64,000 nt of DNA from Alphaproteobacteria bacterium. Lineage in GTDB: Bacteria; Pseudomonadota; Alphaproteobacteria; UBA828. The notes beneath the pieces were generated by a model. It made no database searches. It was not told the DNA's origin and saw only the letters and a list, made by a program, of their open reading frames with translations. The stretch covers positions 224,001 to 288,000 of the forward strand of contig CBDCQT010000010.1 of NCBI GenBank assembly GCA_965220745.1, in the 5' to 3' direction. This document shows, piece after piece, positions 524 through 3,794 of this stretch (its first letter is position 1; the number at the start of each line of letters is the position of its first letter). The translations under genes and the position numbers were made by a program.

Positions 524-760
524 CTAACTCAGCGGGATCATCACGTGGGTGCGAAAGTGCGCGCGCTCCTGCAGCCGCTCGTACCAGGCCGCGATGGTGG
601 GGATGCGCCGGTTGGGATTGAGCGTGCCGTAGTCGTCCGTGTCGAGCCCGCCGAAGGGGCCGCCCACATCCTCCCGCTCGTGGGTCAGGCCCAGCTCGGC
701 CACGGTCCACATCACCCTCTGCACGTTGATCGAGTTCTTGCGGCCCCACACCACCAGCGT
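524..760 (-). pseudogene. Glutathione S-transferase duplicate with 387-bp internal deletion and lost start codon (ATG->ACG)
   Basis: Near-identical to both ends of 2821..3444. The junction at 592-603 joins full-copy 2889 to 3276; homology extends through the RBS region to ~776. Confidence 0.9.
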
Positions 761-871
761 CTTGCGCCTCCTCCCCGGCCCCTTGCCTCGCGAGGCCGGA
801 CACCCCAGGCATGGCCTCGACAATCGCGCTCAACTAGCATTCTAACCGGACCATCCAATGGGGGCCGGTCA

Positions 872-1924
872 ATGCGCCGTCTGACAGAGAAGCAGAAGCG
901 ATGGCTTGCACGGCATGCAGAGTTGAGCCACCGCCGCTCTATGCGTCGGCGCGGCCGCGTACTCGGAGCGCCGGGAGTTAAGCGAATCCACTCCCTCCGG
1001 GTTCCCCAACAGCTTAGCCTTGAATACAACTATGAGGAAACGCTCGCCTTATGTAGCGAGCTGCGCTACCTTGCTCAAATTCCCGGGGCGGGACTAAAGA
1101 TCGATTTTACGACGCTTCAAGATGTTGGCCCTGCTGCTGCGTTGGTTCTTGCAGCCGAGCTCCATTGTTGGCGGCTGAATTCGCTAAGGCGCCCTACGGT
1201 TATCGATATTCACGATTGGAATCAGGACGTTCGGTTTCTTCTCGATGAGATGGGTTTGTTTGATCTCGTTGATGCTATCAATCCGCCGCCGCCGCTTGGT
1301 CCACCGCCGCTACGCTTTATCCGGTTTAAGTCAGGTAAAGCCGCCGATGGAGAACTCGCAAAGAGATTGCGCATTGATCTGGAAAAAATAACTGGTGAGA
1401 TACCGGGTTGGAGCGACCTCTACCGAGGACTAGCCGAAGCCATGACAAACGTACGACAGCACGCCTATGAGGGGAGTGGTGGCGGAAATCTGGAGAGGTG
1501 GTGGATGTTCGGCGCCTACCACAACCCGTCTCGGCTTCTCACATGTGCGTTTTTTGATCGAGGCGTTGGGATCCCAGCAACATTGCCACGAACGCACTCG
1601 GAAAGAGTCACTGGCTTATTGGAAAGGCTCGGATTGCCCAACAACGACGCGTCAATGATCGCAGCTGCCATGGAACTGGGTCGGACTCGAACGGGATTTC
1701 AGCATCAGGGGCGCGGCTTGGCAGACGTCCAGAGATTTGTTGAGCATTCCGAGAATGGGGCGCTACGCATCTTGAGCGGAGGCGGAAAGTACACATATCA
1801 GGATGACGAGAAGGTAACGTCGTCGCTGCCGTCGCCGATCGGTGGCACGCTCATCGAGTGGACGGTGACGTTGCCGGGACGGGAGACCGCTGATGACAGG
1901 AACCATCGAGATTCGGGTAGCTGA
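872..1924 (+). CDS. STAS-like domain + GHKL (HATPase_c) ATPase/Ser kinase-like protein
   Basis: ATG at 872. N-box EAMTNVRQHA, G1 DRGVGI, G2 GRGL, G3 GTLI; N-terminal IDFTTLQDVGPAAALVL...LLDEMGLFDLV is STAS-like. Confidence 0.8.
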   Translation: MRRLTEKQKRWLARHAELSHRRSMRRRGRVLGAPGVKRIHSLRVPQQLSLEYNYEETLALCSELRYLAQIPGAGLKIDFTTLQDVGPAAALVLAAELHCWRLNSLRRPTVIDIHDWNQDVRFLLDEMGLFDLVDAINPPPPLGPPPLRFIRFKSGKAADGELAKRLRIDLEKITGEIPGWSDLYRGLAEAMTNVRQHAYEGSGGGNLERWWMFGAYHNPSRLLTCAFFDRGVGIPATLPRTHSERVTGLLERLGLPNNDASMIAAAMELGRTRTGFQHQGRGLADVQRFVEHSENGALRILSGGGKYTYQDDEKVTSSLPSPIGGTLIEWTVTLPGRETADDRNHRDSGS

Positions 1925-2219
1925 GGATTTCAGTAGGACGCCCGCTGGCCGGTATCGGAGTGACGGCCGCTGGAGTGGAGAGGCGTTCCGCGAGGATCAT
2001 CTCGGGCCAGCGCTGCAAGCCGACACTCCGCGGGTTGTCGTCTACCTAGACGGTGTGGAGGGTTACGGCTCGTCGTTTCTTGAAGAGGCTTTTGGTGGTT
2101 TAGTGAGGAGGGCCAACCTTACGGGCCAAAGGCTCCACAGGGTGTTAGAGATCAAGACGAACGATGAGGCCTGGAAGAGAGAAATCTGGGATTATATTGA
2201 CCAGGCAGCAGCGCGCTGA
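1893..2219 (+). CDS. STAS-like domain protein (DUF4325-type)
   Basis: GRYRSDG.WSGEAFRE and LDGVEGYGSSFLEEAFGGL motifs; overlaps the upstream gene by 32 nt. Confidence 0.8.
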   Translation: MTGTIEIRVAEDFSRTPAGRYRSDGRWSGEAFREDHLGPALQADTPRVVVYLDGVEGYGSSFLEEAFGGLVRRANLTGQRLHRVLEIKTNDEAWKREIWDYIDQAAAR

Positions 2220-2258
2220 GAGCCGAAAACGCTGGCTTCGGTAGTCTCGGGTTGTAGC

Positions 2259-2702
2259 ATGTCCTGGCATTTTGCTGTCCCAATAGCTACGGCACTGATT
2301 TCGGGCTTCATATCCTATTCAGTTGGCCAGCGTATTGAGCGACGCAGGGAATTGGGCCGGAGTCTTGAAGATTTAGAGGAGTTAATTTGGACGTTTTCGC
2401 AACGAAGCGCAGAATATTGGGCGATTGCTGCAGATGACCCGAGGTCTGGTGAGCTGGAAATTTCCATGAAACACCTATCGACCAGGATAGGAAACGTTAT
2501 TGGCCGTCTCAACAGACAATACCGTGGCTTCCAGTTCAACAATTTTAATCAGCTGATATCATTGAGGCAGGCGGCCTTGGCATCGCCGTTTGAAGAGAGC
2601 ACTCGACAGAGAAACGTGCAACGCGGTGATGACGTTAGAATGGAGGCGGACAGGTTGGTCGGCGACCTCTATTCGGCCAGACGTGGTTGGATCAAGTTCT
2701 AG
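2259..2702 (+). CDS. Hypothetical protein, N-terminal TM helix + helical domain
   Basis: ORF of 147 aa; hydrophobic FAVPIATALISGFISYSVG followed by a basic stretch; AT-richer codons. Confidence 0.65.
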   Translation: MSWHFAVPIATALISGFISYSVGQRIERRRELGRSLEDLEELIWTFSQRSAEYWAIAADDPRSGELEISMKHLSTRIGNVIGRLNRQYRGFQFNNFNQLISLRQAALASPFEESTRQRNVQRGDDVRMEADRLVGDLYSARRGWIKF

Positions 2703-2820
2703 TGGCAATCGGCTGATTAACGGTCCCCGCAAATCAACGGCTCCGCCAGCGACCGTGTTGTTCAGGCGCAGTCCCGCACCGCCCGCGCCGCGCGCCGCGC
2801 GCCGCCGGGGCGGCCCCGCC

Positions 2821-3444
2821 TCAGCTCAGCGGGATCATCACGTGGGTGCGGAAGTGCGCGCGCTCCTGCAGGCGTTCGTACCAGGCCGCGATGTTGGGGA
2901 GCGCCGGGCGCTCGATGTCCAGTGCGTGGTAACGATAGCAAGCGGCACCGACAGCGATGTCGCCCATGGTGAGCGTGTCCGCCGCGACGAAGCTGCGCCC
3001 CTCCATATGGGCATCGAGAATGTGCCAGGTCTCGCCCATGGCCCGCGCACAGCGCTCGATCCGTGCCATGTCGCGCTTATCTGCCGGCGTGCGGATGAGG
3101 CCGATGAAGACCGGCGCGAGGTCAGGCAGGAGCGTCGTCTGCATCCAGTCGAGCCAGCGGTCGGCAAGCGCTCGGGCCGACGGGTCCTCGGGCCAGAGGT
3201 GGCCTGCGCCGTAGCGCGCGGCTAGGTAGCGCACGCAGCTATGCGATTCCCAGATGGTGGTGCCGTCGCCGTCCACGATGGTGGGGATGCGCCGGTTGGG
3301 ATTGAGCGTGCCGTAGTCGTCCGTGTCGAGCCCGCCGAAGGGCCCGCCCACGTCCTTCCGCTCGTGGGCCAGGCCCAGCTCTGCCACGGTCCACATCACC
3401 TTCTGCACGTTGATCGAGTTCTTGCGGCCCCATACCACCAGCAT
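2821..3444 (-). CDS. Glutathione S-transferase (GstB/YliJ-like)
   Basis: MLVVWGRKNSINVQKV, NPNRRIPT, WESHSCVRYL, TMGDIAVG; RBS GGAGG upstream of ATG 3444. Confidence 0.92.
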   Translation of the reverse strand: MLVVWGRKNSINVQKVMWTVAELGLAHERKDVGGPFGGLDTDDYGTLNPNRRIPTIVDGDGTTIWESHSCVRYLAARYGAGHLWPEDPSARALADRWLDWMQTTLLPDLAPVFIGLIRTPADKRDMARIERCARAMGETWHILDAHMEGRSFVAADTLTMGDIAVGAACYRYHALDIERPALPNIAAWYERLQERAHFRTHVMIPLS

Positions 3445-3794
3445 CTTGCGCCTCCTCCCCTGCCTCGAGAGCGTTTCCGCTTTGCGCGAAAACGCTCTCG
3501 CAATTTTTCGCTCACGGCAGCCAGCCGCCGCGCGAGTCCGCGCGCCTATGGGCGCGACGGCTGGCGCCTGCGCGGGCGCGCCGCATAAGCGGCGGGCCGC
3601 GGTCGCGGCCTGACGCGCGTCCGCCAAAGACGGACGCGCTCCAGCCCCGCGAGGCCGGCAGTATGCCGGATGGCGGCGGACCGGACCACGGCGGCAGGCG
3701 AAATCCATCGCGCTTCCGCTAGCCGTCGCGTCCGCGCCGCGATAGGCTCTGGCCCACGGGCGCCGGGAGCCGTCTGGCGCGAGAGGAGGGTGCG

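Follow-up and report, generated by a model that had tools for sequence, protein, structure and literature searches.

A VapKSC-like kinase-STAS cassette with a candidate membrane effector at a genus cargo hotspot in an alphaproteobacterium

Near one end of the DNA analysed here (the window, 64,000 nucleotides in all) lie three genes for a kinase, a small STAS protein and a membrane protein, and the question they raise is whether the trio is a new conflict system and, if so, in which of its parts. The initial annotation had put it forward as new, and as built on a stand-alone switch resembling SpoIIAB and its STAS partner. Novelty does not hold for the switch: because genes 1 and 2 are, on profile comparison, homologues of VapK and VapS, published in 2026, the kinase-STAS module is already known, and the triplet had been listed in a hotspot table of 2022. 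The family of the candidate effector is new, and the trigger is probably new as well. The cassette would work like VapKSC without being a member of it, since the candidate effector, the tail of the STAS protein and the ssDNA-contacting aromatic residue differ. The anatomy, the VapK/VapS homology, the conservation of the triplet, its mobility and its location in a phage defence hotspot were obtained directly. The features are as follows.

872..1924, + strand: gene 1, 350 aa; VapK-like kinase with a basic N-terminal helix, a STAS-like domain (~39-135) and a GHKL domain (~180-333)
887..964, + strand: Arg/Lys-rich N-terminal helix of gene 1 (residues 6-31), from the model and the charge of homologues
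1448..1450, + strand: N193 of gene 1, the invariant N-box Asn; counterpart, by motif, of CapK N218 and VapK N160
1893..2219, + strand: gene 2, 108 aa; VapS-like STAS protein (DUF4325), predicted to cap gene 3
2070..2075, + strand: S60 and S61 of gene 2, either of which may be the phospho-acceptor; both lie buried where gene 3 is predicted to bind
2259..2702, + strand: gene 3, 147 aa; candidate effector from an unnamed family, with one membrane pass and a four-helix bundle in the cytoplasm
2271..2327, + strand: predicted membrane helix of gene 3 (residues 5-23), with a basic stretch after it, N-out/C-in
2577..2591, + strand: gene 3 residues 107-111 (family consensus TGGxF; LASPF here), a conserved loop that touches the STAS serines in the model
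528..780, - strand: internally deleted GST duplicate, left boundary
2821..3444, - strand: right boundary, an intact copy of GST; cargo hotspot of the genus at its 3' end

The original description of three co-oriented, tightly spaced genes of low GC was borne out. The reading frames are real, genes 1 and 2 overlap by 32 nt, genes 2 and 3 are 39 nt apart, and GC over 872-2702 is 0.552 against a genome mean of 0.670, a value as low being found in 24 of 2,628 genome windows of the same size; the count of 29 G or C among the 60 nucleotides at 2281-2340 is likewise correct. GST sequence does stand on both sides, as had been claimed, but only the right copy is intact, the left one being an internally deleted remnant that matches it over a 5' part (201 bp at 93%) and the 3' end (76 bp at 95%). 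An assembly artefact as the origin of the cassette was considered and is not supported: single contigs from public runs of one sample, perhaps the one from which the window derives, cover 719-3115 and 449-658 with zero differences, bridging the GST deletion and the right junction, and in a second study 760-2854 is covered in pieces at ~98% identity, GST junction included. No further copies of genes 1-3 were found elsewhere in the genome, and a promoter and terminator scan of the cassette gave nothing that exceeds shuffled sequences.

How the genes came to lie here is indicated by related genomes. The GST region was matched in 20/20 congeners, and gene 1 is present in one of the 20, there at a different site. 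The SulP-like flank directly abuts GST, free of any insert, in four congeners, and three more carry other cargo behind GST, with a partial GST duplicate in two of these three. In light of the empty sites, the alternative cargo and the patchy occurrence of gene 1, it was concluded that the cassette arrived by horizontal transfer and sits in a cargo hotspot of the genus, the GST 3' end. Homologous cassettes are patchily distributed, low in GC and spread across phyla, with GC below that of their flanks at 44 of 45 loci; a scan of viral contigs with gene 1 gave 0 loci. No integrase was seen at the hotspot. The other cargo (among L161:2474-3764, L171:2163-3212 and L170:476-1145) is, in two congeners, an ORF of 349-357 aa with a GC of 0.47-0.48 and without a Pfam or PADLOC match at the thresholds used, and in the third, as read by eye, a HigB-like toxin with an HTH antitoxin. 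Two families of dispersed palindromic repeats, with ~20-25 genome copies each, occur at 422-492 and 3468-3641, the latter family being abundant in congeners too, and upstream of the SulP-like gene, outside the window and ~3 kb to its left, lies what looks by eye like an IS110-like transposase fragment (L158:8228-9025). Elsewhere the cassette has been broken by insertion sequences (L025:9068-12728, L042/L159), either between the STAS gene and gene 3 or inside them.

Gene 1 gives only weak HATPase_c matches, under the Pfam cut-off, and no Pfam match to HisKA. In its model (pLDDT 89.5) residues 6-31 form a helix at the N-terminus, followed by a domain of alternating beta and alpha elements (~39-135) and the GHKL domain. 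The GHKL residues E189, N193, H197, D229, G231, G233, G280 and G282 are invariant in 56/56 homologues, picked from the 120 matches listed, and the claim of complete GHKL boxes with no recognisable HisKA therefore stands. Secondary-structure order and a profile match to VapK-type kinases suggest that the domain preceding the GHKL fold is STAS-like. That match has a probability of 98.2 and an E-value of 4.5e-14, and the cassette kinases are ~18% identical to the VapK-type ones, a term that denotes the kinases of three DUF4325+PIN loci (L086, L092 and L093) rather than the published VapK protein itself.

The cassette kinases nevertheless differ from those of VapKSC. In a quick tree of 57 kinases, whose rows were our own selection and which has several long branches, the 44 linked to gene-3-type proteins fall on one side of a branch with an SH-aLRT of 98, and the PIN-linked kinases lie apart. 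The ssDNA-stacking aromatic of VapK (F54) aligns to D84 of gene 1, and in 43/56 homologues the column holds R, E, T, S, D or N, though a different aromatic might take over its role in the folded protein. The N-terminal segment carries a net charge of at least +9 in 51/56 homologues, and the basic helix is absent from all three VapK-type kinases compared, making it a candidate nucleic-acid sensor.

In a fold search the SpoIIAB structures came out on top (E 8e-5), and SpoIIAB and RsbW are the best structural and PDB-sequence matches of the kinase. A conventional anti-sigma/anti-anti-sigma switch, acting on a host sigma factor in trans and with gene 3 as an accessory, would account for these matches, for the GHKL serine-kinase fold and for the STAS partner. 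Unlike the SpoIIAB-SpoIIAA and RsbW-RsbV switches, however, the cassette is a mobile accessory without a linked sigma factor or phosphatase, and its kinase has an extra STAS-like domain. For 61 loci the neighbourhood was examined out to the second called gene on either side, 223 proteins by Pfam and 80 unannotated or suspect ones by PADLOC; at a Pfam E-value of 1e-12 or below the 223 included neither a sigma factor nor a PP2C phosphatase (trans partners are possible), the one phosphatase being of the LMW tyrosine type. The absence of both first noted at this locus also holds for the neighbours of these 61 loci, and a stand-alone kinase-STAS switch whose best fold match is SpoIIAB, as originally proposed, is supported. 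With a patchy, low-GC, cross-phylum distribution and a closer homology to VapK and VapS also against it, control of a sigma factor seems to us very improbable.

Gene 2 belongs to DUF4325 (Pfam E 1.8e-10), and the best PDB match of its profile is Escherichia VapS (9z7o_A, E=0.01), with VapS S48 aligned to S60. The phospho-acceptor motif of SpoIIAA is DSSG. Its place is taken here by GSSF, which had been named as the acceptor motif; the motif is present and includes a conserved serine, but it holds two serines rather than one acceptor, so that the identity of the phospho-acceptor is ambiguous. S61 is kept in 59/60 homologues and S60 in 47/60. Gene 2 ends at residue 108, its alignment to VapS stops before the VapS inhibitory C-terminal helix (94-116), and it has no counterpart of that helix.

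Two characterised systems provide the frame for interpretation. According to Chambers et al. (2026, EMBO J, PMC13373217), ssDNA activates CapK, the kinase that phosphorylates S54 of CapS, and VapS caps VapC with S48 buried, S48E breaking the complex. VapKSC lies near defence genes in 103/289 operons and gave ~2-log protection against one phage; activation of VapK itself was not examined in vitro, and a passage search of the main text found no membrane variant of VapKSC (PMC13373217). A PIN subfamily coupled to DUF4325 had been noted earlier, as Matelska et al. (2017, PMC5499597) record. VapKSC and the cassette share the order kinase, STAS gene, third gene, a homologous STAS-GHKL kinase without an HTH, and a DUF4325-family STAS protein with a conserved Ser/Thr at the acceptor loop, whereas the third gene encodes the PIN RNase VapC in the one and a single-pass membrane four-helix protein in the other. 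With CapK/CapS the cassette has in common a GHKL kinase and a STAS serine whose phosphorylation, in CapKS, breaks an interface; S54 of CapS is, by our own count in the Appendix table of that paper, the second serine of its motif, like the better-conserved S61 here. When compared without computational alignment, CapK has an HTH and CapS a wHTH, and the cassette kinase and STAS protein have neither. Moreover, CapK and CapS precede the immune operon that they repress, whereas the cassette pair precedes gene 3 and a convergent GST gene here, and variable neighbours elsewhere.

The third gene co-occurs with the pair. Among 64 GTDB loci found by kinase alignment, the STAS gene directly follows the kinase in 61, the other three being cut by a contig end or frameshifted. 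A gene-3 family member comes next in 51 of the 61 (49 adjacent, two split by insertion sequences), eight have a divergent protein of like size in its position (E 1e-6 to 4) and two have none. The reverse search, with gene 3 in 400 genomes of the class, gave 17 matches, 15 with the STAS gene directly upstream, one IS-split triplet and one marginal, and the doubt originally raised over whether gene 3 co-occurs with the pair is answered from both directions. One locus has an intact kinase and STAS gene and lacks gene 3 (L035); in another the STAS gene is frameshifted, which may be an error of sequencing, and the divergent third gene next to it is intact (L054). Sampling of DUF4325 in 300 genomes of the phylum (29 loci covered, three more matches left out) yielded seven of cassette type, four with a clear and three with a weak gene-3 score, and three of kinase-STAS-PIN type, the remainder being two-gene or fused forms. 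Kinase-STAS pairs without a recognisable effector and single-chain fusions of 335-520 aa were observed (L085, L087, L088, L102, L103, L112, L113; L089, L094, L096, L097, L099, L101, L106-L108); in the fusions DUF4325 is C-terminal, and several have a GHKL domain. Loci of the vapKSC type (L086, L092, L093, L181) include one in E. coli adjoining mntR.

Gene 3 has no match in Pfam, PADLOC or NCBIfam; when 53 family members were compared with PHROGs and Pfam, no family was matched by more than two, and none matched PIN. The gene-3 profile gives no score to the VapC of L086, and it collects 2,627 clusters at 50% identity. The model (pLDDT 94) is an all-helical four-helix bundle whose first helix runs on from a hydrophobic N-terminal segment. 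Fold searches found no solved structural relative and returned only generic four-helix bundles, the top Z of 13.6 being one that unrelated helical bundles also reach, so that no family is thereby assigned or excluded. That the protein is membrane-anchored, as first described, rests on the family: the helix is marginal in this copy (Kyte-Doolittle maximum 1.57, 19-residue window), but among 202 members (53 aligned and 149 of the profile matches) the N-terminal hydrophobic window reaches 1.6 or more in 129, and in 194 K+R after the helix exceed K+R before it, placing the C-terminus in the cytoplasm by the positive-inside rule. A YW motif, TGGxF and three arginines are conserved in the family, none of its residues is invariant, and much of the conserved surface is the STAS-binding loop.

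That loop is defined by a predicted complex. Gene 3 emerged as the predicted STAS partner when complex prediction, suggested in the initial annotation, was carried out: over three runs the score of genes 2 and 3 together was 0.86, while none of three controls rose above 0.00. The mark was reached by 116/157 solved and 2/215 mismatched pairs, counts that are only rough for our own alignments. Contacts agree to at least 98% across runs, and partner pLDDT is at least 88. In the model the contact runs between residues 55-62 of gene 2 and residues 103-111 of gene 3, with the lowest error at S60/S61 and their neighbours. The model thus supports binding of gene 2 to gene 3. A buried serine loop against the third protein is seen in a crystal structure for VapS-VapC and in a prediction for this cassette.

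Binding could also mean that gene 3 is input rather than output, tethering and sequestering the STAS protein at the membrane or sensing membrane perturbation (phage entry, holins). The output would then be free or phosphorylated STAS protein, or else the kinase, with some target in the host or the phage. Gene 3 lacks catalytic residues and its fold resembles generic sensor four-helix bundles; with no invariant residue, and with the STAS-binding loop as the focus of its conservation, it would suit a passive anchor equally well. Kinase-STAS pairs without a third gene also occur, as in system 112 of Rousset et al. (2022, PMC9122126). Yet in both CapKS and VapKSC it is the regulated output that binds over the serine of the STAS protein, gene 3 sits at the operon position of VapC, and the positive-inside rule gives it a cytoplasmic bundle, unlike periplasmic sensor domains. 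A role as anchor or sensor is, on balance, unlikely.

The case for defence lies in genomic context. The P2 gpA-gpQ interval is a phage defence hotspot that holds non-defence cargo too, as Rousset et al. (2022, PMC9122126) report, and in the two E. coli records examined, as in Pantoea, the triplet occupies the interval from replication gene A to the portal gene of a P2-like prophage; temperate phage AS1 has it too. These locations are stronger support than neighbour counts. Defence, R-M or methylase genes neighbour 13/61 loci against 3/36 controls (p=0.08), defence and TA genes together 16/61 (p=0.026), mobile elements 12/61 against 2/36 (p=0.049, two of the 12 being insertion sequences inside the cassette), and any of these classes 25/61 against 5/36 (p=0.004), with 36/61 loci having none. 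The controls were 135 genes of 36 (of 40) fixed-position loci, searched with Pfam and PADLOC; as they come from other genomes, gene calls are heuristic, the classification is our own and kin are not independent, the enrichment is modest support. The defence-island association that the initial annotation wished to see probed is therefore present in the known hotspot and the combined classes, but is not significant for defence genes alone. Defence genes seen near cassettes include PIN-TPR-GreAB and ShosT (L013:10282-15093), SIR2 and Avs2 (L017:5076-13816), and AriAB and GmrSD (L020:6307-10844). DNA-repair genes also occur beside cassettes, namely uvrA in L007, L023 and L045 (with ssb in L007), uvrB in L038, ImuB/DinB types in L030 and L059 and MmcB in L046; these neighbours (7/61 against 1/36, p=0.13, not significant) fit damage sensing. 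In the P2 table for E. coli, DinI is a frequent neighbour of DUF4325.

The same context admits a switch that serves the mobile element itself, as an addiction module, a DNA-damage-coupled modulator of lysogeny or lysis, or a superinfection-exclusion protein that is kept in check before induction. Mobile neighbours are enriched, temperate phage AS1 carries the triplet after a repressor-region gene, the HigB-like pair of one congener occupies the same GST site, the P2 hotspot has its non-defence cargo, and gene 3 weakly resembles the plasmid protein KilB (PF27072, pIJ101; Atlas 0.86-0.88). The KilB alignment, however, covers the N-terminal 60 residues only (9.5 bits), has an HHalign probability of 3.7 and is matched by 3/500 tail-shuffled nulls. 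Most copies, moreover, are solitary chromosomal inserts between housekeeping genes, and the kinase is matched in only 6/72,556 plasmids. Service to a mobile element thus strikes us as rather improbable.

Earlier surveys had met the cassette without explaining it. The validated three-hypothetical-gene system of the P2 hotspot (pFR109) is presumably the Rst_3HP of DefenseFinder. Identity of the cassette with pFR109 was considered and rejected from Table S2A, the proteins being different by eye. Table S5A of PMC9122126 includes the E. coli locus NZ_CP025842, and all three of its proteins match the cassette profiles, with E-values of 5e-91, 7e-35 and 2e-20. Among the matches listed there, system 61 (68 occurrences, "1 TM in protein 3") resembles the cassette family by eye and system 19 (155 occurrences) has the same layout; neither appears in Tables S2A/B among the systems that were validated or additionally tested, and no mechanism is given (PMC9122126). 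DefensePredictor (PMC13092281) scored as defensive (log-odds 7.5) a DUF4325 protein with at least 95 occurrences in the Rousset P2 table. It also includes VPUS, an E. coli unit of three genes, the second of them STAS-like, that was non-defensive against 24 phages; should VPUS be of the cassette family, this negative screen would weaken the defence reading, but its annotation and its length of 1,871 bp fit vapKSC (1,860 bp) better than they fit the cassette in its E. coli form (2,160 bp). PADLOC v2 (library of 2023) matched 0/3 window proteins and 0/21 proteins of homologous triplets and vapKSC. No description of the triplet's mechanism was found in the literature searched, most subscription papers and all bioRxiv supplements lying outside its scope.

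Taken together, the comparisons lead us to regard as somewhat probable a VapKSC-like switch that releases a membrane toxin by phosphorylation and so brings about abortive infection. At rest, the serine loop of gene 2 is predicted to cap the cytoplasmic bundle of gene 3 in the inner membrane. By homology, a phage- or damage-derived signal would activate gene 1, most likely a nucleic acid held by the STAS domain of the kinase and its basic N-terminal helix. The kinase would then, as CapS and VapS suggest, phosphorylate S61 or S60, and the cap would dissociate. Freed gene 3 might oligomerise and depolarise the membrane or halt growth, aborting the infection, and this is the weakest step. Points that weigh against the model are the lone membrane helix of gene 3, marginal in this copy, its conservation centred on the STAS-binding loop, the column of the VapK aromatic, loci L035 and L054, and the 36/61 loci with no defence, TA or mobile neighbour. 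A more specific version can be offered tentatively, and we rather doubt it: a nucleic-acid-sensing kinase that, by way of its basic helix, responds to a ligand other than the ssDNA of VapK may open a family of single-pass pore toxins by phosphorylating a STAS plug. If that is true, kinase-gated membrane permeabilisation would be commoner than VapKSC in Pseudomonadota (seven against three of the 29 DUF4325 loci sampled).

On the reading of gene 3 as a phosphorylation-released toxin, the switch described in 2026 with a repressor or an RNase as output would be extended to a third output, an unnamed membrane family with thousands of members. The model names residues to mutate, for a cassette that has stood unexplained in E. 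coli P2 hotspot tables since 2022, and the existence of an E. coli version, in 15/5,426 complete genomes, makes testing easy. Should gene 3 turn out to form pores and to be gated through the phosphorylation of the protein that caps it, the cassette would represent a new effector class joined to a portable switch.
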